Shown here: positions 5,553-42,513 of the stretch, piece after piece
How positions within the stretch are numbered: the stretch's first letter is position 1
How the letters are laid out: each line of letters begins with the position of its first letter
Virus record (IMG/VR): IMGVR_UViG_3300027804_000001
Span: 256,001-320,000 of that record
Strand: one strand, 5' to 3'
DNA length: 64,000 nucleotides
Origin: a virus
Lineage: Duplodnaviria > Caudoviricetes
Notes under the pieces: generated by a model
Seen by the model: the letters and a program-made list of their open reading frames with translations, nothing else
Told to the model about the DNA's origin: nothing
Database searches by the model: none
Position numbers and translations under genes: made by a program

Positions 5553-6243
5553 TTTCTGTTTGTTTACTCAAATAATCTCTAATAAGTCTAAGATCCGTCA
5601 TTCTTTCGTTGTGCTTTTCTTCAGTAAAAAAACTAAAGTATGCTATAAAGTTTTTATCGGGATGTGATTCAATTGTTATTTCATCTTGAATAAATTCTCT
5701 TTCATGAAAAATTTGTATATCGTCTTCATATATCGATATATTTAAATCATTACTAATTAACTGAACCCAACTATCACAAGCACCACTATTTGACCATCTA
5801 CCTGTGACATCTATCCATTTTTTAGGGATTATTGGAAATAACATTTGATTGTCTTTTCTACAATAATCTGTTTGATTGGTTACTAACGGATTAACAACTA
5901 CAAATTTATTTTTGTATTTATCCATTACCAAATCATAATCTTTTGATGTCATCATACAATCATCATTCCACAATAGTAAAAACTCACCTGTGGCATCTTT
6001 TGATGTTGCATTAACATATAAATTTAGGTTTCTATAAAAATGTCTCTCAGATACATACAACTTAATAAATGGTTTATCTGTAATGTATTCTTTTGTTTTT
6101 TGAACAGTTTCAACATCGTCATCATCCATTGCAACCAATATTTCTAAATTATTTAAATCTGAACAATTTTCAATTAGGCTGTTTGTAGATTTAACAAACA
6201 AATCATATCTTTTTCTTGTTGGGAATATTATACTTATTTTCAT
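5545..6243 (-). CDS. GT-A fold glycosyltransferase (GT2-like)
   Basis: KISIIFPTRKR, EILVAMDDDD, FLLLWNDD (DXD-like) motifs. Confidence 0.85.
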   Translation of the reverse strand: MKISIIFPTRKRYDLFVKSTNSLIENCSDLNNLEILVAMDDDDVETVQKTKEYITDKPFIKLYVSERHFYRNLNLYVNATSKDATGEFLLLWNDDCMMTSKDYDLVMDKYKNKFVVVNPLVTNQTDYCRKDNQMLFPIIPKKWIDVTGRWSNSGACDSWVQLISNDLNISIYEDDIQIFHEREFIQDEITIESHPDKNFIAYFSFFTEEKHNERMTDLRLIRDYLSKQTESE

Positions 6244-6244
6244 A

Positions 6245-7063
6245 TTATCCTAAATTTAATAATTCTTCTTTTTCATTTTCAATATCTGTTATATCATCAA
6301 TTGAGAAATGTAAAAACGGTTGTTCATTTTGCAAATCGTGAAAAGTATATTCATCGGATTTGATATCATAAATACCATATCCATGATGTTTTACGGTTTC
6401 ACCAAAATTCTGTTGGATTAAAGAACCAACCATTATTCCTTTACCTCCACCAGGTAATTTAAATTGTTGTCTTTTGTGAATATCACCACAAAGAAGTAAA
6501 TCCAAATCAACAAAATTTAATCTATCATAACCATCTTCAAATTGATATCCTATATCGGTTGACATTCCTTGGATTACTCCGTGAAATAAACCAATATGGA
6601 ATTGACCTTCTTCTTTTTTAAAGTCAGGTCTTTCATTATGTTGGTACAATGAATAAACAACCCAATTTATATTATCATCTTTATAAACACCACTATCTTT
6701 TAGATAGGTGATGTTTTTATTGTCAAGTAATTCAACTATTGGTGTTATACTATCTATACGTTGTGTGTTGTTCTCTAAAAAATCATGATTACCTGGAATT
6801 ATAATTGTCTTACCATAACTTGATAATTGATTCAAAAACCAACTTGTTAATAACAACTGTTCGTTTGAAATATTAATCTTTTGGTGTGCAATGTCACCAG
6901 CAATAACAATACGAATTTCATCCCATCTAATACCTTCAGATGTCCATTTTGCACTATGTTCTTTAATCTCTTCAATTAATTTTTCAAATTGTTTTTTGTA
7001 CAGTTCGTGTAATTGAATTGTTCTGATATGGATATCAGCGATATGTATAAGTTTTTTTACCAT
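6245..7063 (-). CDS. sbcD: SbcD/Mre11/T4 gp47-like metallophosphoesterase nuclease (short C-terminus)
   Basis: HIADIH, AGDIAH, PGNHD, LFHG, GDIHK motifs. Confidence 0.9.
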   Translation of the reverse strand: MVKKLIHIADIHIRTIQLHELYKKQFEKLIEEIKEHSAKWTSEGIRWDEIRIVIAGDIAHQKINISNEQLLLTSWFLNQLSSYGKTIIIPGNHDFLENNTQRIDSITPIVELLDNKNITYLKDSGVYKDDNINWVVYSLYQHNERPDFKKEEGQFHIGLFHGVIQGMSTDIGYQFEDGYDRLNFVDLDLLLCGDIHKRQQFKLPGGGKGIMVGSLIQQNFGETVKHHGYGIYDIKSDEYTFHDLQNEQPFLHFSIDDITDIENEKEELLNLG

Positions 7064-7916: not shown

Positions 7917-8854
7917 TAATCTAATTGTTTTATTTTATATTCACTTAAATCACCTTTCAAATCGGCAATATCTTTATCTCCTTCTAATTTTACTATCCAT
8001 ACTTTACCCATTAATTTACCACAATTTAACTTGTGGAATAATTTTTCAGCATCAGACCAAGCATCAGGATCCAAGACTATAATAATCTTTTTAGCAGAAT
8101 TATAAAGTCTATTGAATAAATTTTGAGTCATATATTTTCCCAACATTGGTATTGAGTTGTCAAGAAATATGGAATCAAACGCACCTTCAACAATATAAAT
8201 TGGTTCATCCCAATTTATTAAATGTTCATTCCACAATAAACTTTCCTTATCAATTTCAGGATTTTTATACTTCATTTTGGTTCTTGTAAGAAAAGAACGA
8301 GCAATAAAATAATTTAAGTTTTTATTTATATCATAAGATGGAATGATAATTCTATTTTCATATAATCCTTGGTAACAAAATCCAATATTATATTTCTCAA
8401 TCATTTCATCTGTTATGTTTCTACTTTTTATATAATTCCAAGCCTGTTTAAATTGTGGTGTCAATTTAAGTCCAAGACTTACATTTTTAAAAGGAATAAA
8501 TTCTTTTGGTAATCTTACTTGTTTATAAACCCTTTTTGGTGAATCAAAATCTTCGGGTTTTAATAATTGATATTTTTTTAATTGTTTAGGGGTTCCGTAT
8601 TTTTTAATTAGTTTAAATAAAGATCCGTGTGTTTCATGTGTTTCCGCACAAACCCAACATTTAAAAACATTTTGTTTATAGTTTACCTCAAGATTTCCCT
8701 TTCCATCTCCGTGGTCTAAACCTTTTATATCGTAAGAACAAACAGGACAGTCAAAAGACATCTGTCCTCGGTAATCATTGTGCATTTTATAATCACCTAG
8801 AATATCTTCTAGTATTTCAATTACACCCGAAAAGTCTACCTCTTGTTCAGTCAT
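7916..8854 (-). CDS. DNA primase (Zn finger + TOPRIM)
   Basis: CPVC...CWVC, IVEGAFD, LDPDA; true start probably ATG 8854 (MTEQEVDF), not 8935. Confidence 0.9.
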   Translation of the reverse strand: MTEQEVDFSGVIEILEDILGDYKMHNDYRGQMSFDCPVCSYDIKGLDHGDGKGNLEVNYKQNVFKCWVCAETHETHGSLFKLIKKYGTPKQLKKYQLLKPEDFDSPKRVYKQVRLPKEFIPFKNVSLGLKLTPQFKQAWNYIKSRNITDEMIEKYNIGFCYQGLYENRIIIPSYDINKNLNYFIARSFLTRTKMKYKNPEIDKESLLWNEHLINWDEPIYIVEGAFDSIFLDNSIPMLGKYMTQNLFNRLYNSAKKIIIVLDPDAWSDAEKLFHKLNCGKLMGKVWIVKLEGDKDIADLKGDLSEYKIKQLD

Positions 8855-11855: not shown

Positions 11856-13145
11856 TTAAGCACTACCTCCTCCTCCAGAACAATTAGTAATATATTGAAC
11901 GTCATCAACACCGCCGAAATCATTTACAAGTATTGCGTAATATGGTGGATTATTTGTATTAAATGTATTATCGGATGAAACGGCGTAATATTGATCACCT
12001 CCCTGCCATACCGTATATTCGGTATCAATATAAACCGTTGTATTTAACATATTTGAAATCGTACTAGAGGTACTATAGAATTGTGCACTTGTTACCTGAT
12101 TCTGATTACAATGACCATTACTTAAAGCCGCAGGATTAGATCGGAAAAATCCATATAAAGGTGGTGTTGGTGTTTGTGTCATCGTTGGCGTTATGGTTGG
12201 TGTTGGTGTTATTGCATTACATTGAACTACGTTATTAATATAACCTGTAGGTCCAATTGTCATTGCATATTTTGTACTGTTAGCCAATACCGCATAATAT
12301 GTTCCGTCTCCAACAAATGTTGTTACACAAAGATTTGAATCGTATGCATAATCACCATTTGCAGGTATTGTATGACCACTTAAATAAAGAGTTACACTAT
12401 TTGTTGCAATTTCAGATTCATACATTGCACAAGGTGCTGCTGTTCCACCAAATGTTGATCCGGTGTGTACTAACATTGAAATTCCTGGTGTTGGTGGCGG
12501 TGGTGGTGGAACAATTACATAATCTTCACATGTACCTGTTACTATTGTACCATCTAGTTTATTAGAACAATCACCTGTTCCTGGATCATTTGCAACATCA
12601 TTAGTATTCCAATAACTTCCCATTGTGTAATAATTTCCACCTGAAGACCAGAATATTTTTCCAACATTTGCCGCTCCACCCTCAATAGGTACGGAATAAC
12701 ATATAGTTGCATCATCACATCTTAATAACTCATACCAATATTGGAAATTTGGTGTAATTGTTGGTGTGACTGTAGGTGTTGGTGTTGGATCTCCCGGTGT
12801 TAATGTTGGTGTTATTGTAAATGTTGGTGTTATTGTAAATGTTGGTGTAATAGTTGGTGTAATAGTGTTAGTTATAGTAGGGGTTGGGGTTGCACCTCCA
12901 CCACCTGTTATAGTGATACATTGAGTTGTTCCTGCACAACTTCCACCATCAACCTTAACAAATAATGAAACAACATTATCAGGAATTCCTGTTATTACTT
13001 TTGGAAATCCGGATACTGCTTGTGAGGTTACTAAACTTGAGCAACCACTACCACAAGACGCACCCGTACAACCAGATATTGATACGGTTTGACCTGTTAT
13101 ATCTGAACCAACTGTTCCTAAATCTACTGTAGCGTTAAATGCCAT
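11856..13145 (-). CDS. Modular fibre/adhesin protein with Thr-Pro linkers
   Basis: Cys-rich N domain, two TPT tracts, poly-Pro, two similar Y.D...T...G...YY modules. Confidence 0.7.
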   Translation of the reverse strand: MAFNATVDLGTVGSDITGQTVSISGCTGASCGSGCSSLVTSQAVSGFPKVITGIPDNVVSLFVKVDGGSCAGTTQCITITGGGGATPTPTITNTITPTITPTFTITPTFTITPTLTPGDPTPTPTVTPTITPNFQYWYELLRCDDATICYSVPIEGGAANVGKIFWSSGGNYYTMGSYWNTNDVANDPGTGDCSNKLDGTIVTGTCEDYVIVPPPPPPTPGISMLVHTGSTFGGTAAPCAMYESEIATNSVTLYLSGHTIPANGDYAYDSNLCVTTFVGDGTYYAVLANSTKYAMTIGPTGYINNVVQCNAITPTPTITPTMTQTPTPPLYGFFRSNPAALSNGHCNQNQVTSAQFYSTSSTISNMLNTTVYIDTEYTVWQGGDQYYAVSSDNTFNTNNPPYYAILVNDFGGVDDVQYITNCSGGGGSA

Positions 13146-13175: not shown

Positions 13176-14078
13176 TTATACAGAACACATTAATAATGGT
13201 GATAATGGTACTTGAGAGTGTAATGCAACACTAGCTTCTGTTGGAGTTGGGTCCATTAGATATAATTCTTCTGAATTATAGTTAAATCCATTATCTATAA
13301 TTGGGCTTGTATAAATTTCACCTATTACAGATATTCCACAAATTCTAAATTGAAGTGTGTTTCCACTACCTCCTGTCCATCTACCTTTTATCGTGTAAGG
13401 ACAATTTGATACTAATATATCGATATATCCAGATTTTGCAGTTGAAGTTGTTAGTTCATCTAACAAATCACCCTCAACGCCTCCGTTACTTGTTACTAAC
13501 AATTGACCACCTGTTTTATTATTTGTTGACCAATATAATCTTACTGTTGGTTCTCCAGTTGGTGTTATGGTTGGAGTATATGTTGGTGTTATTGTAAATG
13601 TTGGAGTAATAGTTGGGGTTGGTGTTGGAGTCGTGTTAGTTTGTACCGCAGAACCACCACTAAAATTACAAATAGGTGTATGAGTTGGTGTAATCGTTGG
13701 TGTTGGTGTAAGATTTGAAATAGCAGAACCACCACTAAAATTACAAATAGGTGTGTAAGTTGGAGTAACTGTTGGAGTTGGGGTAAAACATTTGGTATAG
13801 AAATCTAATTCATGTATATAAATGTTTTCAATAATATAACTATTGGTTACCGTGTCCAATATTTTAAACCAATATTGTTTTCCGTATGGGTTTGGGTCTA
13901 CTTCTACATCAAAATCAATTGTGATTGAGGATGTTCCACCAGCAAAAACACTACCATATTGGGCACCCCAAGTTGGATTTTCTTGTTCAGATACCGAACC
14001 CGGTGTTCTACCGTTTTGATAGAATAATTTAAAATTATTTGGTGAAACTATATTTTTTATCTCAATTACTAGACCCAT
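13176..14078 (-). CDS. Modular fibre/adhesin protein with Thr-Pro stalk
   Basis: TPT tract with two PICNFSGGSA nodes between N and C domains. Confidence 0.7.
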   Translation of the reverse strand: MGLVIEIKNIVSPNNFKLFYQNGRTPGSVSEQENPTWGAQYGSVFAGGTSSITIDFDVEVDPNPYGKQYWFKILDTVTNSYIIENIYIHELDFYTKCFTPTPTVTPTYTPICNFSGGSAISNLTPTPTITPTHTPICNFSGGSAVQTNTTPTPTPTITPTFTITPTYTPTITPTGEPTVRLYWSTNNKTGGQLLVTSNGGVEGDLLDELTTSTAKSGYIDILVSNCPYTIKGRWTGGSGNTLQFRICGISVIGEIYTSPIIDNGFNYNSEELYLMDPTPTEASVALHSQVPLSPLLMCSV

Positions 14079-14116
14079 ACCTATATAAATACCAATAATA
14101 AAAATTTAAATAAAAA

Positions 14117-14768: not shown

Positions 14769-16925
14769 TTATGGTATGGCACCCGTGTCAATTCCTAAAT
14801 AGACATAATCATTACCAGAACTTATTCCTATGGTATGTACATAATTAACATTTCCACTAGGTGCGGTACAATTAGAACTAGAACCCGTCATTGAATACCC
14901 AATGTTGGTACCGAATGTAACTTGGTCGGACTGACTTAAACCTGTTATTTGTCCATAATAATCACAATTTCCATTTAATGGTCCATTATAAAAAGTATTA
15001 TATGAACCACCATTTATTTGATAGGTTATTTCAATTGAGTTGTATGAATTATCATAATCCTGTGCATTTACATAAAGTGTAACATAATTTGCAACACTTA
15101 CTATTTCTGTTACACCACTATTTGTAACACAACCATTCGCATCTGTTACCTCAACACAATATCCACCCGCACATAGAGTACCTACTGATTGTGTTGCTGT
15201 TGATTCAGTTACTCCTGTTATTGTTGTCACCAACGTGCCTCCACATGTTGTATATGGTGCTGTTGAGTCGAGATATAATTTATAAGTTTTTGGCCATACA
15301 CCACCAGTTGAACTCATATCAAGAGTACCATTACAACCACCTGTATCATTTGCTGTAATCGTAATTGAAGCTGATTGTGCACTTGGTTGAGTTATTGTAA
15401 CAGAAATTCCTTTTACTGCACCATTACTAGCTTTAACATTAAGGGTATAACCTGTTGCAATTAAACTACTAAATGTCTTAGGTAATGCAAAATAATTTAC
15501 ACCATCCAACGATACCGTATAAGCTCCACCTGAACCACCTGATGCACTATTAACTGTTAATGAACCGTCTGAACCACCATTACATGATACATTTGTTTGT
15601 GTATAACTAGCACTAATCTCAGTATAAGTTGGTGTCACCGTTGGTGTGAACGTCGGTGTTATTGTAAACGTCGGCGTTATTGTTGGTGTAATTGTATAAG
15701 TAGGTGTTATAGTTGGTGTAAACGTAGGCGTTATTGTTGGTGTAATAGTAAACGTAGGTGTAATAGTTGGTGTAATAGTTCTAGTTGGTGTAATGGTAAA
15801 TGTTGGCGTTATTGTAAACGTCGGTGTTATTGTAAACGTAGGTGTTATAGTTGGTGTAATTGTTTTAGTTGGAGTAATAGTTGGGGTAGGAGTTGGTGCA
15901 ACATAAGTTGTACTTACTGTGAAGTTACAAGCCGGTGTTGGTGTTGGTGTAATAGTAAATGTTGGTGTAATTGTTGGTGTAACAGTTCTAGTTGGTGTTA
16001 ATGTAAACGTTGGTGTAATTGTATAAGTCGGAGTTATAGTTGGTGTAATAGTTGGTGTAAATGTAGGTGTGATAGTTGGTGTTATAGTTTGACTTACTGT
16101 TTGAGTAGGTGTAATAGTATAAGTTGGTGTAATAGTATAAGTTGGTGTAATAGTCTGACTTACAGTTTGTGTAGGTGTAATAGTATAAGTTGGTGTAATA
16201 GTTGGAGTAGGTGTAGGTGCCACATAAGCAGTGCTCACTGTGAAATCACAATCCGGAGTTAACGTTGGTGTAACTGTATAAGTTGGAGTAATAGTTGGTG
16301 TTATAGTATAAGTTGGTGTAATAGTAAATGTCGGTGTGATAGTAAACGTTGGGGTTACTGTTACTGTTGGAGTGATTGTAAGTGTAGGTGTAATAGTTGG
16401 TGATAACGTTTGTGTTGGTGTAATAGTATAAGTTGGTGTTATGGTATATGTAGGAGTAACTGTCGGTGTAGGTGTTGGTGCAACATAAGTTGCATTAACA
16501 ACAAAGTCACAAGCCGGAGTTAACGTTGGTGTTATTGTATATGTTGGTGTTAAAGTTTGTGTGAACGTCGGTGTTATTGTAAACGTCGGCGTTATTGTAT
16601 AAGTCGGTGTTATTGTTGTTGTAGGTGTAATTGTGTATGTTGGTGTAACTGTTAACGTTGGTGTTAAAGTTGGTGTTGGGGTTGGTGCGTAGAATGTCTC
16701 ATTAGTAAAACATGATTCATTGTAAAGAATCACATTTACTGTACTATCAGGTACATAAACATCAACACCCGGATTTGTTGTTAAGTCGTTATAAGTAATT
16801 CCTGTTGCATTATCATTTGTACTAACTCTTGTGGCATAATTAGATGGATTTACATCATCATAGTAAACCGAATATGGTCCTGGTGATGTTCCTCCTGTTA
16901 TTAATATGTGAAAATATCTTGCCAT
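14769..16925 (-). CDS. Long fibre/adhesin: N domain, ~355-aa Thr-Pro stalk, SprB-like repeats, head domain
   Basis: (TxTxTP)n; [14 protein letters not shown]...YTVSLDG...ITQP and VEVTDANGC SprB-type signatures. Confidence 0.8.
15621..16685 (-). repeat. Coding Thr/Pro tandem repeat ([16 protein letters not shown]) with 3 Cys nodes
   Basis: 12/18-nt degenerate tandem units in frame. Confidence 0.95.
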
Positions 16926-16937
16926 TTATATTAATTA

Positions 16938-19900
16938 TTATACCGTATTAAAACCTAATTCAACTTGATAGTAAGAATTCACATGATATAACGCATCATT
17001 TGTTGTAAACTCAATTCTCAATGTATGTACAGAGTTCGCCGCTAATAAGTATGGTGACGGTACTGTAAATGTTTTTATCACAGGTCCCATTGCACATCCC
17101 TGATTTAAATCTTGTGATGTTGCTCTGGCGATTTCTGTTCCATTTAATTTAAATTTAATGTTCTCAAAATTAGTATCTTGTAACTCCGCAAGACCACTAA
17201 AGTCTAAAGACATATTCGTATTTTGTGGTCCAACTGTTATAGTTGCTTCCGCCCAACCAATTTGTGTTTGATTACAAGTTCCATTAGGACAATTTGACGA
17301 ATTCGAAACATTAAATCTAACTGTTTGATTCAAGTTTGAAATTGCCCATCCAGCATTAATTCTATTTTGTGCTGAAACTGTTGGGTCAACATATAAACAT
17401 TGTGAAAAACCTGTAACATTAGTATATGTCGTCCATGTTAATCCTGAAACAGGTAGTGGTGTTGGTGTTATTGTCATTGTTGGTGTAATAGTTGGTGTTG
17501 TTGTAACTGAAGGTACATACTCACTAAATGATGCCGCAAATGAACAATCAATTGTTGGAGTAATTGTTAATGTCGGTGTAATAGTTGGTGATACTGTTAC
17601 TGTTGGTGTAATAGTAAATGTTGGTGTTATTGTAAACGTTGGTGTAATTGTAGGAGTAGGAGTAGGTGCTACGTATGTCGTACTAACCGTGAAATCACAA
17701 GCCGGAGTTAATGTTGGAGTAATTGTATAAGTTGGGGTAATAGTTGGTGAAACTGTTACTGTTGGCGTAATAGTATATGTTGGAGTAATTGTTAATGTCG
17801 GTGTGATTGTTAAAGTTGGTGTAATCGTCTGACTTACAGTTTGTGTAGGTGTAATAGTAAATGTTGGTGTAATTGTATAGGTTGGTGTAATAGTCGGTGT
17901 AATTGTATAAGTCGGAGTTATTGTATACGTTGGAGTTACGGTTGGTGTTGGGGTTGGTGCAACATAGGTTGTATCAACATTGAAATCACACGCTGGTGTC
18001 AATGTAGGTGTAATTGTATAAGTTGGTGTAATAGTTGGTGTAACCGTTAATGTTGGTGTAATTGTTTGAGTTGGTGTAATAGTAAATGTTGGCGTTATTG
18101 TTAACGTCGGAGTAATAGTTGGTGATAATGTTTGTGTAGGTGTTATTGTATACGTTGGAGTAATTGTATAAGTCGGAGTTATAGTTGGTGTAATAGTAAA
18201 CGTAGGTGTAATAGTATAAGTTGGAGTAACTGTCGGTGTAGGTGTTGGTGCTACATATGTAGTAGTAACCGTAAATTCACAAGCCGGTGTTAGAGTTGGT
18301 GTAACTGTAAATGTTGGGGTTATAGTTGGTGTAACAGTTAATGTAGGTGTAATTGTATAAGTTGGGGTAATAGTTGGTGTTGGTGTTATGGGTAAAATAA
18401 CAACATTAACACAATCACATTGTGGTGTAACTGAATTTACAGTAAATCCGCTAACACATTCACCAGGTAATAAACCCGCACCTATATTAAATCCGTGTGT
18501 ATGGTCGTTGTATGCAATTGTTTCTGTTCCATTAAATACGGTACCCAAGTCACCATACGCAGTACCCGAAACAATATAATCACAAATTGCATTTGCATTA
18601 TCTGTTAAATCAGGATTATTGAATAATTGGATGTCAAAGTTTGAACATCCTAATAATCTAACTCTTAAGTATTGTGTTACAAATGGATCACATGTTTGTG
18701 TTGGTGTGATTGTATAAGTTGGGGTTACTGTAAACGTTGGTGTAACGGTTTGTGTTGGTGTAATTGTATATGTTGGAGTTACAGTTGGAGTAGGAGTTGG
18801 TGCAACATAGGTTGTGTCAACATTAAAATCACAAGCCGGTGTAAAAGTTGGTGTAATAGTCGGCGTAATTGTGAATGTTGGCGTTATAGTATAAGTTGGT
18901 GTTATAGTATAAGTTGGTGTTATAGTTGGTGTAATAGTATAAGTTGGTGTTATAGTATAAGTTGGAGTTACTGTTTCTGTTGGTGTAATAGTAAACGTTG
19001 GCGTTATTGTTAACGTCGGAGTAATAGTGGGAGTTATACTTTGAGTTGGGGTAGGTGTAGGTGCAACATAAGTTGTACTAACTATAAATTGACAATCTGG
19101 TGTCAATGTTGGTGTGATAGTATAAGTTGGTGTTATAGTTGGTGTAAATGTTGGTGTTATTGTAAATGTAGGTGTAACAGTTTGTGTTGGTGTTATTGTT
19201 AACGTCGGAGTTAAAGTTGGGGTAATTGTATGAGTAGGTGTGACTGTTGGGGTAGGTGTTGGTGCAACATAAGTTGCATTAACAACAAAGTCACAAGCCG
19301 GAGTTAACGTTGGTGTTATTGTATATGTTGGTGTTAAAGTTTGTGTTATAGTAGGTGTTATTGTATAAGTTGGTGTAATAGTAAATGTTGGAGTAATGGT
19401 AAATGTAGGTGTTACTGTTGGTGTTGGTGTGGCCGCAACATAAGTTGTATCAACAATAAACTCACAATCAGGAGTTAACGTAGGTGTTATTGTATATGTT
19501 GGTGTTAAAGTTTGTGTGTAAGTTGGTGTAATTGTTGGTGTAACAGTGAATGTTGGTGTGATAGTTGGTGTAATAGTAAACGTAGGTGTTGGAGTTGGTG
19601 TCGGTGTCTCAGGACAATAAATTAATTTCCAACAATTTCCATCACATGGTGCGTATTCATATCCACTTGGGCAAGTATAACCAGATGAAAGATAATTACC
19701 ATTTATATCTTTAATAACAGGAATTGTTTGACCAATAAAATCTGAAGATGAGAATATTACATTTAAATCATTTATTGATGTTGCACCAGTTAATTGAGGT
19801 AATGTGTTATCATAAATTTCACAACCAAATGACGCAGGGTTTGTTTGATTACCTGTTAAATTATATCCATATAAACCAATAATGTGATCACCTGCCGTTA

Positions 19901-22900
19901 ATGTTATTGGGTAAACGTGCCATGTTCTAAATTTCGATAATTCATTAAGACCTGAATTAGCAAACGTATCTAAAATAACATTACCATCAATCTCCAATCT
20001 AAATTCATTATCAGCACCAATACCGATATAGTAATCACCACCTGTTATACCTGTGATACAAACATTAAATCCTAACCAAGTTTGTAATGGATTATCCACG
20101 TTGTCATTTACACCATCATTTGCCCACAAACCTGTTCTATTTAATGGTCCATTACCGGGGTTGAATATATTATAACCAGTTGTATTTTTCCATAAATCTG
20201 CGGTGTTTAGATGTATCTCTTCTGTCCCTGTTCCGTTTATATTCCAACCTAATTGATAAACAGTTGTTCCACTCATACTATATTCAAAGTATGTTCTTCC
20301 ACTTGCGGTGTAAGGTGTTGTTGGTGCGGTCGCGGAAACAATATCAATTGCCGTACAATAACCTCCATCTATTGGTGTCCATGTATATCCTGAAGGACAA
20401 TCCACACAAGGAATTGCTGTAGGTGTAATAGTATTTGTTGGTGTTATCGTTAACGTTGGTGTTACTGTTTCTGTTGGTGTAATTGTATAAGTCGGTGTAA
20501 TAGTTTGAGTATACGTCGGAGTAATAGTTGGTGTTATCGTTAACGTTGGTGTTATAGTTTGTGTTAGTGTAAACGTCGGCGTTATTGTAAACGTCGGTGT
20601 AATAGTTGTTGTTGGTGTTATTGTATATGTTGGTGTAACAGTTAACGTAGGAGTTACTGTTGGAGTAATTGTAGGAGTTGGTGTTGGTGTTGGGTATGCA
20701 GAATTACAATCTCGATAAGGAGTTATTTCACAATCAACATAACCAGTTGTGTCTCTTTCACTTGATGTTTGTGTGATATCTTGACACAATCCACCATCAT
20801 AATATTGAATAATATATTCATCTAATGTTTTGAACTCGTCATAAACATGTTGTAATAATATTTGGTGATTTGAGTTACCATTAAATGCAATTAAATTTGT
20901 TGGTGTTGTTCCCGATAAATTTAAATTAAAATATAAATCAGATTCACAATACTCTAAATTAACTGAAATAACTTCAATAAGTCTACCACTTTCAGTGATT
21001 AAATAATCACCATGTTCATAATAATCATTTGAATAATCACAACATGGTTCCTCTTGTATTGGTTTTATTTGTAAATGTTCAGGAAATCTTTCAGTAAAGA
21101 AAAATCTTTTTAAATCTATTACTTCATCTGTAGACTCGTCAACATACTTTCTCGTGTAAACTTTAACTTTTGTTGTTTGTAAAATTTCAAACACCTCAAC
21201 ATCTCCATCCTTAGTTGTACCTGTTATGTGATATTTTTTAATTGTTCCCAAACAATCTTTTGCGGTTACTTTTTTGGGTGTGTAATCAAAAACAAATGTG
21301 AAATCATCATTTGTTAAACCATCTACTAATGATTGATTTGATAATTCACTACAATCATTAAATGTTGCCGAAAGAATTGTATCACCTGAAACAATATCTT
21401 TTACATATGTTTTAGTATAACTTGTTAATGTTGTTTGACTACCACCTGTATATTTTAAAACATACGAATTACCACCCAATCCATAATTGAAAGAATTTCT
21501 ATATTGGATTTTAGGTACTAATTTGTAAAGAACTTCATCATCAACCGGTGATGGTGTTAAACCACTATAACCAATCCATTGAATGTTTATACCTTCAAAT
21601 TTTACTTTGGTGTCGCAGTTGGCTGCGTCGGTAAATAAGAAATCAATTTCATCTGTTTCTTTAACATTCGACACCACCCAAACACATTCGTATCCACCAG
21701 GAATATCCATAGTAGAACCATGAACCGTATAACCTGTTGTTTCATTTACACCATATTCACAATTTCTATATACAAATAACGGCCAATTCTTAACTCTATT
21801 TTTCTGAATTATATTGTTAGTATCTCCCGTGATTTTTATTTTTAAATCACCATTTAAAATACATTCAGGTCCATTAGGATAATTTATATCATCACCTGCA
21901 AATAGTCTATTTGGGTCTTCGTCGTCATCCGGGCAATCAAAAGAAAAATCAAGTTCTAATGTACAATCAGCAGGTGTTGTTGCACCGTTTGAAGCAACAA
22001 ATCTGTAATCAAGATATTCTTCAACAGAACAATCATTTGGTCCGTACTTTATAGATGTGAATGTAACTTGTTCGATACCATTTTCATCTGTAAAAAATGA
22101 ATAGGATATTTTTGGTTTTGGAACTTGGGTACATGTACTGCTACTTGTTGCTGCTGTATATGGTGCATATGTATCAATACAACCCGGAGTGTTCATTGTG
22201 TCTTCCGAATTGATTGAATCGATTAAACCAATTAACGCATCAACCCATAAATCTTTAATTGCATTAACATCAGGTTCCAAATAATCTTTATAATCACATA
22301 TTAATGGTAAATGTGTTGATGAGGATGTCGTTCCTGTACAATTATCAATTGGAAATGAGTTAAATAATTTTGCGCTTACTCCTGGTATTGATGTGTTGCC
22401 ACTCACAATAACTTCAAATCCTGATTCAGGCCCACCATATTGAATACCATCAATTTCTATTAATGGATAATAAGTAACGCCAGTTGCATTAATTAAACCT
22501 CTAAAATAATTTTCATGATGACTACCTAATAATTTTTCAAAATCTTCTTCGATTGCCTCTTCAAAACTTGGATAAAGGCTTTCTGTAAAAGTCTTTGGTT
22601 GACAACCGTATCTATATTTGTATTTTGGTCTACCGAAAATATTATTTTCAATTAAATTACCACCAGTCCATAACGTTGTTGATGGTATAACTTGATCTAA
22701 TACTTGAGTCCAATATGGACTCATCTTATTGATAAATTCGTTTAAATCCGGTATAGTATATGGTACAAAATCAGTTGAACTTACATAATCTTGATAAATG
22801 TCTTCAAGTTTTATGTAATTCTTTTTGTATTTGATAATGTGTGAGTTTTTAATTTGTGTACTCAACATTTTATCAACATATTCCGCAAATGTAACACCTG

Positions 22901-24923
22901 TTTGTGGTTCTAATGTTGCACTACCAAATGATATCTCTAACTCTCTTGACTTTCTCCATATATCATAGTTGATAGCATTTGCAGAAGAAAGATACACTTC
23001 AATATTTTTTCTATTGAATATAAATGAAGAATATTCGTCAGCTATTTGTCTTTGTCTGTTATCTAATTTACTAACAATTTCGTAACCAGTGTCTAAACCG
23101 GGTAAACTTCTATAGATATCAAAATAATCTTCACCATAAGTAAAAGATTTATTTTTTGTTTTAATTGTTTTGGTTCTTCCCGTTAAATTAGACTTATCAC
23201 CATCAATTATGTCTATTGATCTGTGATCTAATGTTATATCATACCAACCCGCACCTTTTTGGAAAAACGTGTTAGATGATTCGTCAAACGCCGTTTTTGG
23301 TATTTTAGTACCTTCAACAATTGGGTACGTTTCGGATGTGAAAGTTGTTGATGCCTTAGTTGAAGATATTGAATAGGTATAACCACTCGGAATAAATTCT
23401 GCAACATTGTATGTTTTTGTTCCTGCAATAACATCATAGATATCACTATCTAAATCAAATGATTTTGGTAATGAGGTTATTTGATAAACAAATTCATTAA
23501 TTTTAATCATTGGTTCAGGTGCACCTAAGAACTTTAAGAAAAATTCTATTGATGAACGTGTACCTTTTGATTTATATATGTGAGATAGATTAACTAATAA
23601 TCTTCTATAAAATTCGTTTTCTGCGTCAACAACGTTTTTACCAATTGTTAGACCGATATATTGTGTGTCTTGTCTTGTGTATAATAAATCTTCTAATTTA
23701 TTTTCATCAAATAAATTTACAGTAGATAAACCTAAGGTGTTTGATAAATTTTTTAATAATATATCGGGTAAGTTATTAATACCATCATAACTTACATTTC
23801 TCATGTAAGCAATGTTTTCAATATATTTTTTTACTTTATCGAAACTATGTCCATATAATTGGAAAATCGCTTCAGCCTTCTTGTCATCAGTATCAAACTC
23901 AAATAACTGTGGAGAAGACATAAATCTAACAAATAAATTAGATTTATAATCATCTATTTCGTCAGCCAAATTTGATAATTGTTCGATATATAAATCATAA
24001 TCAATACCAACAATTTTAACGTTCCAATTATCTTTTGAAAGTGGCCATGTTACTTCAACATCACTAAGTACTGTGTTTGAACTATCTATACTATCTTTTG
24101 GTACACTAAATGTTGCGGTGTATTTTGGATTTGTATCTCTATCAATTAAACATTGTTCTAATTCATCTAAATTAGAAAAGAAGTCTTCAACCAAACCATT
24201 ATTTGGTCTTATTAATATGTTCTCACTATAATTTGTGTTAGTTCCAAATGGTTTACCCTTAACCTTTAATACGATTTTATAATCGGTACTAGGTTCGGTA
24301 TAATTTATAATGTCATAAGTGATACCACTTATTTCTATAACATACTTTGTATATGAAGAATAAAAATTTCTTAATGTGTTTGTGGTGTTTGGGTCGACTT
24401 GACTATTTGGTGTTACAAATATTACATCGAGTGGATTGTATAATCTACCAAAGTCAACCTCGAATTGTGTGGTGTTTAAATTAATGTCATAAACAACATT
24501 ATCTACAGTATAATCTGATGACCTTACTGAACTGTTTTTATCAATTAAAACACCAGCCGGAAACTTTTCAATTATATTTCCTAATGTTGCACCAATTCTA
24601 CTTTTTAATGAACCAAATAATGATTTACCCGCATCATTTTTTGATGACCTAAATTTTACCTCTTTATTTTCATTTGAAGTACCATTTGGGTTATTTTGGT
24701 CATTTGACTTATATTTTTCTTCTTTTAAATCGTCTAAGGTTAGAAAATCAGAAAATTGTCCAGAACGAAATGTTTTCACATCTCTTTCAGGGATAGATCT
24801 GTCAATAGCGAAGTTAGTATTAGTCAATTGACTAGTACCATCGGTAATTTGTCTACCGACTAAACTATCACTAAACGTTTCAGACCCATTCGCCGCCTGA
24901 CTTGGAACTTTTCTTCTTGCCAT
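16938..24923 (-). CDS. Giant 2661-aa baseplate-wedge/fibre fusion protein
   Basis: N region with LLKNLSNTLG and YKSKGTRSSIEFFLKFLG (gpI/gp7-like wedge); degenerate Hint; Thr-Pro stalks; lectin-like inserts; C-terminal beta domain. Confidence 0.75.
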   Translation of the reverse strand: MARRKVPSQAANGSETFSDSLVGRQITDGTSQLTNTNFAIDRSIPERDVKTFRSGQFSDFLTLDDLKEEKYKSNDQNNPNGTSNENKEVKFRSSKNDAGKSLFGSLKSRIGATLGNIIEKFPAGVLIDKNSSVRSSDYTVDNVVYDINLNTTQFEVDFGRLYNPLDVIFVTPNSQVDPNTTNTLRNFYSSYTKYVIEISGITYDIINYTEPSTDYKIVLKVKGKPFGTNTNYSENILIRPNNGLVEDFFSNLDELEQCLIDRDTNPKYTATFSVPKDSIDSSNTVLSDVEVTWPLSKDNWNVKIVGIDYDLYIEQLSNLADEIDDYKSNLFVRFMSSPQLFEFDTDDKKAEAIFQLYGHSFDKVKKYIENIAYMRNVSYDGINNLPDILLKNLSNTLGLSTVNLFDENKLEDLLYTRQDTQYIGLTIGKNVVDAENEFYRRLLVNLSHIYKSKGTRSSIEFFLKFLGAPEPMIKINEFVYQITSLPKSFDLDSDIYDVIAGTKTYNVAEFIPSGYTYSISSTKASTTFTSETYPIVEGTKIPKTAFDESSNTFFQKGAGWYDITLDHRSIDIIDGDKSNLTGRTKTIKTKNKSFTYGEDYFDIYRSLPGLDTGYEIVSKLDNRQRQIADEYSSFIFNRKNIEVYLSSANAINYDIWRKSRELEISFGSATLEPQTGVTFAEYVDKMLSTQIKNSHIIKYKKNYIKLEDIYQDYVSSTDFVPYTIPDLNEFINKMSPYWTQVLDQVIPSTTLWTGGNLIENNIFGRPKYKYRYGCQPKTFTESLYPSFEEAIEEDFEKLLGSHHENYFRGLINATGVTYYPLIEIDGIQYGGPESGFEVIVSGNTSIPGVSAKLFNSFPIDNCTGTTSSSTHLPLICDYKDYLEPDVNAIKDLWVDALIGLIDSINSEDTMNTPGCIDTYAPYTAATSSSTCTQVPKPKISYSFFTDENGIEQVTFTSIKYGPNDCSVEEYLDYRFVASNGATTPADCTLELDFSFDCPDDDEDPNRLFAGDDINYPNGPECILNGDLKIKITGDTNNIIQKNRVKNWPLFVYRNCEYGVNETTGYTVHGSTMDIPGGYECVWVVSNVKETDEIDFLFTDAANCDTKVKFEGINIQWIGYSGLTPSPVDDEVLYKLVPKIQYRNSFNYGLGGNSYVLKYTGGSQTTLTSYTKTYVKDIVSGDTILSATFNDCSELSNQSLVDGLTNDDFTFVFDYTPKKVTAKDCLGTIKKYHITGTTKDGDVEVFEILQTTKVKVYTRKYVDESTDEVIDLKRFFFTERFPEHLQIKPIQEEPCCDYSNDYYEHGDYLITESGRLIEVISVNLEYCESDLYFNLNLSGTTPTNLIAFNGNSNHQILLQHVYDEFKTLDEYIIQYYDGGLCQDITQTSSERDTTGYVDCEITPYRDCNSAYPTPTPTPTITPTVTPTLTVTPTYTITPTTTITPTFTITPTFTLTQTITPTLTITPTITPTYTQTITPTYTITPTETVTPTLTITPTNTITPTAIPCVDCPSGYTWTPIDGGYCTAIDIVSATAPTTPYTASGRTYFEYSMSGTTVYQLGWNINGTGTEEIHLNTADLWKNTTGYNIFNPGNGPLNRTGLWANDGVNDNVDNPLQTWLGFNVCITGITGGDYYIGIGADNEFRLEIDGNVILDTFANSGLNELSKFRTWHVYPITLTAGDHIIGLYGYNLTGNQTNPASFGCEIYDNTLPQLTGATSINDLNVIFSSSDFIGQTIPVIKDINGNYLSSGYTCPSGYEYAPCDGNCWKLIYCPETPTPTPTPTFTITPTITPTFTVTPTITPTYTQTLTPTYTITPTLTPDCEFIVDTTYVAATPTPTVTPTFTITPTFTITPTYTITPTITQTLTPTYTITPTLTPACDFVVNATYVAPTPTPTVTPTHTITPTLTPTLTITPTQTVTPTFTITPTFTPTITPTYTITPTLTPDCQFIVSTTYVAPTPTPTQSITPTITPTLTITPTFTITPTETVTPTYTITPTYTITPTITPTYTITPTYTITPTFTITPTITPTFTPACDFNVDTTYVAPTPTPTVTPTYTITPTQTVTPTFTVTPTYTITPTQTCDPFVTQYLRVRLLGCSNFDIQLFNNPDLTDNANAICDYIVSGTAYGDLGTVFNGTETIAYNDHTHGFNIGAGLLPGECVSGFTVNSVTPQCDCVNVVILPITPTPTITPTYTITPTLTVTPTITPTFTVTPTLTPACEFTVTTTYVAPTPTPTVTPTYTITPTFTITPTITPTYTITPTYTITPTQTLSPTITPTLTITPTFTITPTQTITPTLTVTPTITPTYTITPTLTPACDFNVDTTYVAPTPTPTVTPTYTITPTYTITPTITPTYTITPTFTITPTQTVSQTITPTLTITPTLTITPTYTITPTVTVSPTITPTYTITPTLTPACDFTVSTTYVAPTPTPTITPTFTITPTFTITPTVTVSPTITPTLTITPTIDCSFAASFSEYVPSVTTTPTITPTMTITPTPLPVSGLTWTTYTNVTGFSQCLYVDPTVSAQNRINAGWAISNLNQTVRFNVSNSSNCPNGTCNQTQIGWAEATITVGPQNTNMSLDFSGLAELQDTNFENIKFKLNGTEIARATSQDLNQGCAMGPVIKTFTVPSPYLLAANSVHTLRIEFTTNDALYHVNSYYQVELGFNTV
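17457..20693 (-). repeat. Coding Thr/Pro tandem repeats with 7 CxFxVxxxYVxxTP nodes, interrupted by two globular domains
   Basis: Inserted domains at about 18390-18695 and 19620-20415. Confidence 0.95.
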
Positions 24924-33357: not shown

Positions 33358-35190
33358 TTAGAATGTAGTCGAAACCAAAGGTTTTACTCTTATTTTAATA
33401 TCTTTATTAGGGAATCTAATTTGGAAAATTTGATTGGATTTCATGAAAATTGTCATATCACTTTGTACAATCTCCTTTGTTGCTTCGTCAACATAACCAA
33501 CTGAAGCTTCATTTGTTGAATATTCACCACCTACTTTACCGTAAACTCTGATATCCACAACACTTACAACACCCGCAACTGTACCAATTTCTTTAAATAA
33601 GTCACCCACAAATAATGGGTCTCCCATTTTTCTTTTTTCTATTTTGAAATAATCAACAATTTTTTCAATTGTTGCTCTAACTATTTCTGTTTCACTTTCA
33701 TTCTTATCTCCCAAAATATCTACCTGTACACCCATGTCGATAACCTCACCACTTTCAATTTCCAAATAGTCATTTATCATTCTATACTCAGAAAGATACT
33801 CTATTATATTGTTTTTTAATGTATTAGAAACTATGTTCGTTAAATTACCTTTTTCATCATATGAGGTTAATTTGATTTTAACCTTATTATCTTCTTCCAT
33901 CACATTTACTTTAGCCGGTGCACCAAACGTAGATGGCATATTTTCAATTATTGATTTATAATCATTTAATGTAACCGCTCTATTTTGTGCTGCGAAATTA
34001 TAAGCAACCATGTTTCTAATTTCCTCTATTGTTGGTTGATCCGCACCACCGATTGCAGGTGTAACGTTTGTTACTCTTAAAGATTGTATAACTTGAGTGT
34101 TTACTGAAGAAACTGGTCCATTAACAACAAAATCAACATTATCAACACTTGTAATCACATTAACACCTAAGTTACTATCTTTACCTCCACCAATTCTATA
34201 TTTTATAAAAATCGTAGTGTTCGCCTTTGGAATTGCACCTAATGATAAATTGTTTAGATATGTTGCAAGATTTACTTTTAAATCACCTGTCATATAATTG
34301 TCTAAATTGTCAAGTGGATTAACTGTTCCTGAACCAAATGTTAAATGGAAATAACCTTCTGGTGTAAATTCTGTAATAAATTTATTATTTACTGCCAGAT
34401 ACGTACCAGGTTTAAAATTATCTTTATCAGATACTTTAGTTGGGTCGGGTATAAACACTTTATCCTGCATTAATGTTTTTACTTCATACCATTTATTTGT
34501 TGGAGATGAAAACTCTGCAGAGGTTGGATTAGCACCGAATGTCGTACCATCTTTATGAATAACTGATGTTATACCTAAAATATTTTGTTCGGGTAAATAA
34601 ACCTTTAAGAATGGTTTTTGATCTAAATCATTTATAACTTTTCTAAAAACTCTAGTTACACCATTTACAACCGCCTCTCTTTTTGTAATGGTGTATGATA
34701 TTAATTTGTTATTACCATCAAAATTTGGAATTTTTAATCTGTTTGGTTCACCTTTACTATTAAATGGATTTGAGAAATCTATATCTTCAACTGTTTCAAA
34801 AATTTGACCTCCTCCAGATATTTGTGCTCCTGATCTTAATAAACCCAAATATTCAGTTTTTTCTTTATCTCCACTTACAGGTACATTAATTGAAAAATCA
34901 CATAAAGCAACTGATGGTCTATTACCTGGTATTTTTAATCCATATGTTTTTGCAATATGAAAAAGAGATTGTCTTTGTTGTGCAAAATCTAATATCGTTT
35001 CTTGCCAAACTCTATCAATGTGGAAATGTAAATTATCCGCAACCGCAGCATTTAAATCTAATAATACTGAAAATATTGAGGCATCATTGGTATTTTTAAC
35101 CAAATCAGGATAATAATCTTTGGTCATGTTAACCAATTCTTCTCTTAGTCCCGCAAAATCTCTTGTTGCGTATGATATTTTCTTTGACAT
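33358..35190 (-). CDS. Baseplate wedge subunit (T4 gp6 / baseplate J-like)
   Basis: YATRDF, AKTYGLK, GGADQPTIEEIR, AQNRAVTLNDY motifs; adjacent to gp25. Confidence 0.9.
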   Translation of the reverse strand: MSKKISYATRDFAGLREELVNMTKDYYPDLVKNTNDASIFSVLLDLNAAVADNLHFHIDRVWQETILDFAQQRQSLFHIAKTYGLKIPGNRPSVALCDFSINVPVSGDKEKTEYLGLLRSGAQISGGGQIFETVEDIDFSNPFNSKGEPNRLKIPNFDGNNKLISYTITKREAVVNGVTRVFRKVINDLDQKPFLKVYLPEQNILGITSVIHKDGTTFGANPTSAEFSSPTNKWYEVKTLMQDKVFIPDPTKVSDKDNFKPGTYLAVNNKFITEFTPEGYFHLTFGSGTVNPLDNLDNYMTGDLKVNLATYLNNLSLGAIPKANTTIFIKYRIGGGKDSNLGVNVITSVDNVDFVVNGPVSSVNTQVIQSLRVTNVTPAIGGADQPTIEEIRNMVAYNFAAQNRAVTLNDYKSIIENMPSTFGAPAKVNVMEEDNKVKIKLTSYDEKGNLTNIVSNTLKNNIIEYLSEYRMINDYLEIESGEVIDMGVQVDILGDKNESETEIVRATIEKIVDYFKIEKRKMGDPLFVGDLFKEIGTVAGVVSVVDIRVYGKVGGEYSTNEASVGYVDEATKEIVQSDMTIFMKSNQIFQIRFPNKDIKIRVKPLVSTTF

Positions 35191-35644: not shown

Positions 35645-35684
35645 AATAATAAATATAAACAATACTAAAATGGTAATAAATAAA

Positions 35685-35706
35685 AAACCCATCCGAAGAT
35701 GGGTTT
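35685..35706 (-). terminator. Intrinsic terminator with C(UUCG)G tetraloop
   Basis: AAACCCATC-TTCG-GATGGGTTT followed by TTT. Confidence 0.9.
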
Positions 35707-41491: not shown

Positions 41492-42466
41492 CTATTCATC
41501 CTCAGTTACAACTTCAATATCCATTGCGTCTGTAACGTTAACGCCTAACATTTTACTAATATAGTCTCCATGTTCTGATTTGTAAAGTTCAATGCTTTTC
41601 TTTTCTTCAACATCGTCTCTACCCTTCATAAAATCATGTGCAGTAACTAAAATTCTACCATCTTCATAACCTAAACCATTTACGTGGTTTTTCATAATAG
41701 ATATTTTTGTTCTTGTTGCAATTTTAACTTTTCTCTTATCTTTAGTGATTGAGATTTTAGTAGTTCCTGCACCCTTTTGGTTACCAAATAAGAAAACCAA
41801 AGTTGAGTTTAACCAAATGGCTTCACCACCTTTTGCTTTGATTTTTGGTTGTCCAAATGGATTATCAGGTAACTCTACCCAAGGTTGGTTAACTATAATT
41901 AACGAGTTGGTATATTGTTTATCAACCCTTCTAGAACCTGAAATTCTCTGATTTAAACCCATACCGATTTTATCTGCCAATACTGATGCGTTGTGTTGTT
42001 TACCACCCTTACCATCGTATGTCATTTTACAAGGAACTGAACCTACGGAATCCCATAAGAAAAGAATATCATGTGGAATTTCACCTTTTTCTTGTGCGTC
42101 TAATACTTCATTAAGAAAATCCGTAATTTGTTCGATATATTCAAAATCACTATTGAACAAATAGAAATCATCTTCTTTATTGAAACCCATTAGTTCAGCG
42201 TGGTCCCAACTCCATTTTTGTTCTGTAATAATAAAAACCGGTAGAATACCTTTCTTTTGTGCGTCTACAGCCGCCTTTACAAGTGCAGTTGTTTTTCCTG
42301 TATCACTATGACCCAGAAACATATTTAAATGACCCATTGCTGGTCCGGGTATTCCTGTAGCATCTAAAAATGCATCACCCAAATCAAAGAAACGGTCAGC
42401 CTTATATTCCGCTTCTTTTGAGAACTTTTTCTTTATTGAACTAAAATCGTTTTTTTTGATTGCCAT
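41492..42466 (-). CDS. recA: RecA/UvsX recombinase
   Basis: GHSDTGKTT, WDSVG, INQ, KGGEA, KNH; start ATG 42466. Confidence 0.9.
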   Translation of the reverse strand: MAIKKNDFSSIKKKFSKEAEYKADRFFDLGDAFLDATGIPGPAMGHLNMFLGHSDTGKTTALVKAAVDAQKKGILPVFIITEQKWSWDHAELMGFNKEDDFYLFNSDFEYIEQITDFLNEVLDAQEKGEIPHDILFLWDSVGSVPCKMTYDGKGGKQHNASVLADKIGMGLNQRISGSRRVDKQYTNSLIIVNQPWVELPDNPFGQPKIKAKGGEAIWLNSTLVFLFGNQKGAGTTKISITKDKRKVKIATRTKISIMKNHVNGLGYEDGRILVTAHDFMKGRDDVEEKKSIELYKSEHGDYISKMLGVNVTDAMDIEVVTEDE

Positions 42467-42484
42467 AATATAAAATTTAAAAAT

Positions 42485-42513
42485 GGGGACCATTGACGTT
42501 ATCTACGGCCCCC
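42485..42513 (-). terminator. Probable terminator or processing hairpin between SSB and recA
   Basis: GGGGGCCG...UGGUCCCC stem followed by AUUUUU. Confidence 0.6.

Follow-up and report, generated by a model that had tools for sequence, protein, structure and literature searches.

Tandem-repeat surface proteins of bacteria, such as the group B streptococcal alpha C protein and the staphylococcal SD-repeat proteins, undergo concerted evolution and vary in size. These proteins resemble the locus described below in that homologous recombination makes the repeats of one genome alike and adds or removes units in frame. They are, however, cellular adhesins in which exchange is usually intragenic, whereas the exchange considered here involves neighbouring genes for predicted phage virion proteins. 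Among phages, Tetart and colleagues are said to have reported in 1998 that recombination at short conserved motifs of the T-even distal tail-fibre locus gp37/gp38 swaps adhesin specificity. The likeness to our case lies in short conserved segments of fibre genes at which crossovers exchange heads, in phages whose recombination is of the UvsX type; the T-even motifs, however, are His boxes and Gly-rich motifs, exchange is mainly between phages, and there is no long repetitive stalk.

In Streptococcus thermophilus phages, the collagen-like repeats of antireceptor/fibre genes are recombination hot spots (Desiere et al. 1998 and Duplessis & Moineau 2001, as cited in PMC7242381 and PMC5601072). There, as at our locus, low-complexity in-frame repeats lie between the domains of receptor-binding proteins, and recombination gives deletions as well as domain exchange. 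The repeats described there are collagen Gly-X-Y, in contrast to the Thr/Pro hexapeptides (TPTxTI) with single-Cys nodes found here, and the present exchange joins two different genes of one genome in a large myovirus-like phage, for which we claim no membership of the streptococcal group. An 81-nt in-frame deletion in the collagen-like repeats of the Guarani/Sputnik virophage ORF8 expands host range (PMC7242381). Such a repeat-mediated in-frame deletion, with a minority genotype selected on a new host, is the kind of outcome that the initial annotation of our locus predicted, but in the virophage it was shown experimentally, whereas here a predicted 2.8-kb deletion would fuse two genes and no variant is seen in the assemblies. 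Finally, the LtfA/LtfB fibre of the T5-like phage DT57C is split, compared with the single Ltf of T5 (PMC4728585), so that, as at our locus and its relatives, the same fibre parts may occupy one polypeptide or two in related phages; the protein family is different, and its abstract describes no repeat-mediated mechanism.

The locus lies in a 64-kb stretch of DNA (hereafter, the window) from an uncultured large phage, and the 95-nt identity on which this analysis centres links two neighbouring minus-strand genes. The translation of g718 (14769..16925) comprises a 75-aa N-terminal anchor domain, a Thr/Pro hexapeptide stalk with three single-Cys nodes, a SprB-repeat region and a C-terminal head. 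That of the second gene (16938..24923), a giant of 2661 aa, begins with a conserved 1400-aa proximal part, continues with noded Thr/Pro stalks broken by two globular inserts, and ends in a C-terminal head. When scanned whole, neither protein matched a Pfam family, the sole PHROG match was phrog_15511 (function unknown), and these Pfam and PHROG scans revealed no homology to a characterised fibre family. A scan of aa 440-718 of g718 did match the SprB repeat (PF13573) at 30.1 bits, above the Pfam gathering cut-off of 28, a match that the whole-protein scan had missed; homologues at 50-58% identity also bear PF13573.

Upstream of both genes are gp25-like and baseplate-J-like genes, while the window also contains a gene for a sheath; the phage is contractile-tailed, myovirus-like, and probably a jumbo phage. 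The anchor of g718 is kept in the relatives L001 (53%) and L014 (87%), and the N-terminal 1400 aa of the giant are common to at least 125 homologue clusters with varied, diverse adhesin-type C-termini. A position in the baseplate/tail module, together with a conserved proximal and a hypervariable distal part, is the pattern of fibre or receptor-binding proteins, and on these features of the sequence both products are putative receptor-binding, tail-fibre-like proteins. AlphaFold2, run on a single sequence of a three-node stalk segment, gave no confident fold (pLDDT 38). Searches of deposited phages (megablast and tblastn) gave no match, exact look-ups of the 2661-aa giant and of a 282-aa ORF with a TTG start returned no record, and the clustered protein collection had no entry for g718 or for either variant of the giant. 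Neighbour genes of 305 aa and 325 aa were also found on a contig of 0.2-1 Mb.

The initial annotation drew attention to the identity between 16468-16562 and 19252-19346, and this match proved exact over 95 nt and could not be extended either way. Copy A (16468..16562, minus strand) covers aa 122-153 of g718, at the first stalk node, while copy B (19252..19346, minus strand) covers aa 1860-1891 of the giant and is located equivalently in L007 and L006/L008. The copies are spaced by 2784 bp (3 x 928), and the tract begins at codon position 1 in both genes, thus in the same phase (codon phase 0), encoding [31 protein letters not shown] with a whole node included. No exact direct repeat in the window is longer, and the second longest measures 40 bp. 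When synonymous codons were shuffled with both proteins fixed (300 shuffles), the longest shared substring had a mean of 27.6 (sd 3.6) and a maximum of 47; limiting the codon pool to the stalks (200 shuffles) gave a maximum of 38. The 95-nt identity is thus not due to chance.

Inside the tract, none of the 31 codons differs between the copies, whereas 14 of 18 codons differ in the upstream flank and 8 of 11 in the downstream flank, mostly synonymously and with the peptide register kept; the flanks thus encode nearly identical peptides yet disagree at the majority of wobble positions. This gives a sharp island of identity within flanks that are about 72% identical. An identity run far beyond both the surrounding divergence and the null maxima, with synonymous sites homogenised inside and diverged outside, in flanks that remain alignable in register, is the pattern left by a conversion tract. 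The other nodes were said to differ at wobble sites, and this is correct, since other node pairs use the same codon at only 37-78% of the positions where their amino acids agree. A third, partial copy of the 5' part of the tract (19483..19518, minus strand; 35-36 nt, [11 protein letters not shown]) lies in the adjoining module of the giant, where 19483-19518 equals 16528-16563 and 19483-19517 equals 19312-19346.

A further 33-bp identity had been noted between g718 (16153..16185, minus strand) and the giant (17827..17859, minus strand). It is indeed exact but not significant when taken alone, because a match of at least 33 nt arises in about 9% of shuffles. It belongs, though, to a collective excess: there are 5 matches of at least 32 nt, against 0.2 expected, and 55 exact g718-giant matches of at least 20 nt, against 14.9 expected. 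The stalks of the two genes consist of in-register repeats that are 65-80% identical.

Stalk length varies between near-identical strains. A 48-bp (16-codon) stalk unit at 18918..18965 (minus strand) is present in the window and absent from the strain represented by an ENA contig. The polymorphism changes stalk length in frame and falls at a tandem repeat of 48 bp, marked by a 32-nt match (18886-18917 = 18934-18965). In a global alignment of L006 of the ENA strain with the window, this indel was the sole difference over both fibre genes.

In the nearest relatives found, the N-terminal part of the giant has 74-76% aa identity to that of the window, and exact matches of stalk DNA to the window do not exceed 22 nt. 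Within a genome, the Cys-node motifs of g718 and the giant share 76% identity (window) or 82% (L001); between genomes the figure is 35-40%, in contrast to the 74-76% of the giants' N-termini. The node motifs are therefore homogenised within each genome across both genes and distinct between genomes, that is, they undergo concerted evolution. L014 carries an independent 56-nt inter-gene tract of its own, together with 76-nt intragenic tracts (null maxima, 38-39). None of its stalk matches to the window exceeds 22 nt.

The distal parts are also found on other proximal modules. In P0059/L011, the N-terminus of a giant is followed by a noded stalk and then by cadherin, SprB and head regions; the g179 homologue is directly next, with no anchor-domain gene. 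The same distal module is carried by a 75-aa anchor in about 30 clusters. In roughly ten clusters (2385-2850 aa) it sits instead on a third N-terminal module, which is unrelated and about 1300 aa long, as seen in the three sequences read whole (P0170, P0171 and P0173). Heads and N-termini are discordant, with identities of 76-79% as against 48%.

We consider it probable (at roughly 78%) that the 95-nt identity was left behind by a recent homologous exchange, short-patch and non-reciprocal (ectopic gene conversion), between paralogous Thr/Pro 'TPTxTI' stalk modules. The modules belong to neighbouring fibre-like genes, putatively receptor-binding, of an uncultured phage that has a contractile tail and is probably a jumbo phage. 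The earlier proposal of ongoing conversion or recombination among the stalks is well supported by the 95-nt island, the 48-bp strain indel, the homogenisation of the nodes and the 56-bp tract of L014. As for mechanism, we infer that the in-register stalk repeats of the two genes act as a single pool, whose members the phage's own recombination system would readily pair during recombination-dependent replication. The candidate enzymes are a UvsX-like recombinase (41492..42493, minus strand; phrog_97, E 4.6e-11) and, from the same profile scan, an SbcC-like nuclease (1778-4120) and an exonuclease (40452-41471). Phage recombination between diverged sequences is efficient (PMC2327257). Such pairing would leave conversion tracts, such as the 95-nt one at this locus and those of 56-76 nt in a relative, and could change stalk length in frame, as in the 48-bp indel between near-identical strains. 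In the longer term, it would homogenise the single-Cys node motif in each genome and re-assort distal heads onto different proximal modules. Exchange of this sort is an ordinary phage route for reshuffling receptor-binding parts.

Could the identity instead have been produced by assembly, with a repeat collapsed or homogenised, or unrelated pieces joined as a chimera? Assemblies do break at the stalk repeats: the ends of L002, L003 and the ENA contig fall in stalks, and the contig of JGI 3300004240 stops at 16527, within copy A. Yet both copies, each with its own unique flanks, occur in JGI 3300027697, which is 100% identical to the window over 10.1 kb, and in contig k141_1277971 of ENA ERZ27247887, so the identity is not an assembly artefact, although these assemblies come from almost identical strains and confirm the sequence rather than the age of the identity. 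The ENA contig has a different stalk length, which points to a separate assembly of a separate population. Its k141_ name presumably follows MEGAHIT naming and would imply a final k of 141, above the 95-nt repeat; moreover, de Bruijn assembly does not alter one copy to match another. An artefact is thus very improbable. Import of the patch from a co-infecting close relative, rather than copying between genes of one genome, would fit the movement of heads between lineages and the strain-level cassette replacement just downstream, where the ENA strain lacks g300 and, at window position ~14084, drops to about 65% identity from 100%. Against import, a donor sequence is available 2.8 kb away in the same genome and is the most parsimonious source, and an exact search for the 49-nt node core gave 0 matches in other viral contigs and 0 in metagenome contigs; we regard this alternative as decidedly unlikely. 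Little credence can be given to selection on a nucleotide-level element (RNA structure, internal promoter or protein-binding site) or to codon bias combined with protein constraint. The node codons do hold a hairpin with a 6-bp stem, but the RNA fold z-score is -1.3, with 20 of 200 shuffles folding as well or better, and the tract contains no promoter- or terminator-like site. Codon-preserving shuffles never came near 95 nt, and the other nine nodes encode very similar peptides with different codons.

A different question is whether the repeat serves as a built-in receptor switch, as the initial annotation proposed: selection would keep the 95-nt repeat so that some progeny delete 2784 bp and show the g718 head on the giant. 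The arithmetic of the crossover stands, in that the deletion would join the giant in frame to the SprB-repeat end of g718 in a 2456-aa fusion. This product may be viable, and its architecture has a natural counterpart in the relative P0059/L011. The phage also has UvsX-type recombination genes, and the stalk-length variation between strains speaks for a recombinationally active locus. On the other hand, L007 and the ENA contig, which are the two other assemblies across the locus, have the parental arrangement only, without the deletion variant, and the longer proteins searched included no near-identical fused protein, the best match being 58% identical. The window contains no inverted repeats of at least 24 nt, and the ten neighbouring genes scanned gave no match to a recombinase or reverse-transcriptase family. 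The 95-nt repeat is also absent from L001 and L014, whose longest inter-gene matches (33 and 56 nt) lie elsewhere; a dedicated site should be conserved, and this one is not. A programmed or contingency switch is accordingly not borne out and seems distinctly improbable. An inverton or shufflon of the Gin/Cin/Min kind and a diversity-generating retroelement (TR/VR) were considered as well; both readings were dropped because the repeats are direct and 100% identical, with no adenine-position differences, and the neighbouring genes scanned gave no recombinase or reverse-transcriptase match. A better reading of the 95-bp repeat is that conversion produced it incidentally and that it can now, by happenstance, serve as a deletion substrate. 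It is the best substrate of the locus for an unequal crossover, which would delete 2784 bp; a giant-g718 fusion would then be an occasional by-product open to selection, with no programmed switch.

A broader reading, which we hold to be unlikely, is that the Thr/Pro single-Cys-node stalk acts as a universal in-frame recombination adaptor across a large clade of uncultured jumbo phages. Since every fibre gene of a genome would carry the same homogenised stalk DNA, heads could be moved between genes and onto unlike anchors by plain homologous recombination, and the tract would mark a site at which the giant-g718 fusion is already present in a minor share of virions. If true, this would amount to population-level bet-hedging of receptor specificity.

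To our knowledge, Thr/Pro hexapeptides with single-Cys nodes have not previously been described as a recombination substrate. The locus illustrates cleanly, in a natural setting, that the repetitive linkers of phage receptor-binding proteins may drive concerted evolution, length variation and domain shuffling at once. As it stands, it mainly explains the mosaicism of these fibre genes and the assembly breaks that fall there; if deletion or fusion variants proved appreciably frequent in the source populations, it would become a tractable model of host-range bet-hedging in uncultured jumbo phages.

Direct comparison of two adjacent fibre-like genes, g718 (718 aa; 14769–16925, minus strand) and the 2661-aa gene directly upstream of it (16938–24923, minus strand; hereafter the giant), showed that positions 16468–16562 of the former and 19252–19346 of the latter are identical over 95 nt, with the identity ending on both sides. 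In both genes the first base of the tract is also the first of a codon (aa 122 of g718, aa 1860 of the giant), and the tract encodes, on the minus strand, the same 31 residues, among them an entire 13-residue node, i.e., the single-Cys motif of the stalks. The two copies, 2784 bp apart, form the longest exact direct repeat of the 64-kb window, the second longest being 40 nt.

When synonymous codons were shuffled with both proteins kept fixed, the longest substring shared by the two genes averaged 27.6 nt and never exceeded 47 nt (300 shuffles); with a codon pool from the stalks alone, the maximum was 38 nt (200 shuffles). The perfect identity described in the initial annotation is exact, in the same codon phase and far above both maxima, and it is confirmed to be beyond chance. 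None of the 31 codons within the tract differs, as against 14 of 18 upstream and 8 of 11 downstream. These flanking differences are nearly all synonymous, the flanking peptide being almost unchanged between the genes, and the flanks are ~72% identical (80% over a 329-bp alignment that counts the tract in). Given these counts and the shuffle results, the tract is a sharp identity island within diverged flanks. The remaining node pairs have only 37–78% of codons in common at identical residues, which bears out the wobble differences claimed for other nodes.

A second shared segment, of 33 nt, had been read in the same way. The match is exact but, taken alone, falls within the null, since a longest match of at least 33 nt arose in about 9% of shuffles. 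What does exceed expectation is the collective set of exact matches between g718 and the giant: 55 of at least 20 nt, versus 14.9 expected, and 5 of at least 32 nt, versus 0.2 expected.

The possibility, raised at the outset, that the identity is an assembly artefact is very unlikely, because two separate assemblies agree on it and one of them represents a different stalk-length variant. Exact-protein look-ups recovered three further contigs. JGI 3300027697 Ga0209033_1002479 is 100% identical to window 19868–9727 and has both copies 2784 bp apart; ENA ERZ27247887 k141_1277971 (63.8 kb), from a near-identical strain, has both copies exact but 2736 bp apart. The sole difference between the latter and the window across the two fibre genes is a 48-bp, 16-codon deletion at 18918–18965, which takes out a single 48-bp unit of a tandemly repeated stalk segment. 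The third contig, JGI 3300004240 Ga0007787_10000018, ends within the g718 copy at window position 16527, the exact point where a 35-nt sub-segment becomes three-copy, and contigs of more distant relatives likewise end at the stalk start. Stalk repeats do, then, trouble assemblers, and the fibre loci of this phage group are systematically truncated in public assemblies. Among related loci, the ends of L002, L003 and L006 and the start of L005 all lie at or within Thr/Pro stalks. One 0.2–1 Mb contig encodes the 305-aa and 325-aa proteins found just upstream of the giant, but lacks exact copies of g718, of g179 (the gene downstream of g718) and of both giant variants; possibly it stops within the stalk or contains a different fibre variant.

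Several observations bear on recombination among stalks. The 48-bp in-frame indel is a strain-level stalk change. Comparing the two genes within one genome gives 76% identity for the 14-residue node motif in the window and 82% in a related phage locus, L001. Across the two genomes the motif drops to only 35–40%, even though the N-termini of the giants are 76% identical. In other relatives, too, the node type is homogenised and peculiar to each genome. Node motifs are therefore under concerted evolution within genomes. In a 315-kb contig, L014, whose giant N-terminus and second-gene anchor are 74% and 87% identical to those of the window, an exact 56-nt tract (5867–5922 and 8517–8572) occurs in both the giant and the second gene, and the second gene contains two internal exact 76-nt tracts (8094–8169/8628–8703 and 8419–8494/8740–8815). 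All three exceed the codon-shuffle maxima for that locus (38–39 nt). No stalk match between L014 and the window is longer than 22 nt; the L014 tract is independent of that in the window, so that exchange appears to have recurred. Taken together, the 95-nt tract, the indel, the concerted nodes and the L014 tracts make gene conversion, as initially proposed, a well-supported reading.

In keeping with this, the window carries a T4-like recombination and replication gene set, comprising genes for an SbcC-like nuclease subunit (1778–4120), an SbcD/gp47-like metallophosphoesterase (6245–7063), a DnaB-like helicase (38616–39998), an exonuclease (40452–41471) and a UvsX-like recombinase (41492–42493). 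In T4-type phages, homologous recombination is very active and is driven by machinery of the UvsX/SbcC/exonuclease type. Even sequences ~22% diverged can be recombined by phage systems (PMC2327257).

The match of the ENA strain (L006 10540–10963) to the window stops at ~14084, right after a terminator hairpin downstream of g179. This strain lacks g300 (window region 13176–14100), and its next gene is a g429 allele of ~65% nucleotide identity, which amounts to a fibre-cassette replacement between near-identical strains. In the window, g300 is a third stalk-bearing gene with a different Cys-node type: two 64-nt units (13648–13786), with 89% identity and a spacing of 75 bp, code for TPICNFSGGSA modules. 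Short TPTxTI tracts are present in g429 (11856–13145) too. Downstream of the Thr/Pro fibre genes, at a distance of 8.5 kb, is a family-2 glycosyltransferase gene (PF00535; 5545–6243, from the L005 gene table).

Genes for a tail sheath (59298–62150), a gp25-like protein (35192–35692) and a baseplate-J-like protein (33358–35190) identify a contractile-tailed phage. Its GC content is 31%, and it is probably a jumbo phage, since related contigs reach 135–350 kb. All genes of the fibre locus are on the minus strand. At least 125 protein clusters (1478–2974 aa) share the conserved N-terminal 1400 aa of the giant, and Thr/Pro tracts occur beyond residue ~1350 in 93 of 120 homologues; the C-termini are highly diverse and adhesin-type (BspA/DUF285, discoidin, LamG, vWA-like, cadherin plus SprB). 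In g718, a 75-aa N-terminal anchor domain, 53% (L001) and 87% (L014) identical in the orthologous second genes, is followed by a Thr/Pro stalk with three nodes, an SprB-repeat region (30.1 bits when scanned alone; Pfam cut-off 28) and a head. The stalk repeat is a TPTxTI hexapeptide (42% Thr, 18% Pro) with single-Cys nodes. Profile searches matched neither protein to a characterised fibre family; position and architecture suggest that both are receptor-binding fibres. Among cellular proteins, the distal part of g718 best matches gliding-motility and T9SS components from Bacteroidota, which hints at a host in that phylum. Two stalk segments of the giant are separated by a globular insert (aa 1519–1758; window 19650–20370) that has a weak, sub-threshold similarity to PA14 (E 0.055) and recurs with 41–66% identity in the homologues P0094 (aa 1309–1544) and P0115 (aa 1062–1285); its position differs among giants, which makes a mobile lectin-like module probable.

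An unequal crossover at the 95-nt repeat would, as first calculated, remove 2784 bp, with loss of giant aa 1891–2661, a 12-bp spacer and g718 aa 1–121 with the anchor, and computation gives an in-frame product of 2456 aa. Neither the two other assemblies across the locus nor the longer proteins of the collection yielded this variant; among the latter, the top identity to the distal part of g718 is 58%. The architecture itself does occur in nature. P0059 (2568 aa), encoded at locus L011 on an NCBI metagenome contig, begins with an N-terminus of the giant type and continues with a noded stalk, three cadherin-like repeats, SprB repeats and a head; a g179 homologue comes directly after it, with no anchor-domain gene. 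In L001, a P0059-like distal module is on a separate 1341-aa gene, after a 75-aa anchor and a one-node stalk; the cadherin parts are 79% identical, the giant N-termini only 49%. Roughly ten clusters (2385–2850 aa) have the noded stalk and cadherin/SprB module without a giant-type N-terminus, and in the three sequences examined over their whole length (P0170, P0171 and P0173) these follow a third, unrelated N-terminal module of ~1300 aa. The latter has hydrophobic, membrane-like stretches. Heads, too, move independently of the N-terminus, as in P0003 and P0061 (N-terminus 48%, vWA-like head 76% identical). From these comparisons, fusion, fission and head exchange have taken place repeatedly in this family, the junctions lying within or beside the stalk.

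The further proposal that the repeat is a built-in receptor switch is unsupported. The repeats are in direct orientation, the window has no inverted repeats of at least 24 nt, and no recombinase or reverse-transcriptase family was matched among the genes scanned. The RNA fold of the tract is unremarkable (z = –1.3), no promoter- or terminator-like site lies within it, and neither L001 nor L014 conserves the 95-nt repeat. We therefore regard the repeat as a probable by-product of conversion that offers a chance of deletion, rather than a dedicated device.

Recombination at conserved motifs is known for gp37/gp38 of T-even phages, and bacterial adhesins with tandem repeats undergo concerted evolution. 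In Streptococcus thermophilus phage antireceptors, collagen-like repeats are proposed hot spots of recombination (PMC7242381, PMC5601072), and in the Guarani virophage the in-frame loss of 81 nt from the collagen-like ORF8 alters host range (PMC7242381). The locus described here resembles all four systems, its closest described parallels, in its way of working, but differs in repeat chemistry, a TPTxTI hexapeptide with single-Cys nodes, and in that exchange is between two adjacent genes. It is a good, ordinary case of fibre evolution driven by repeats, in a group of phages about which little is known.
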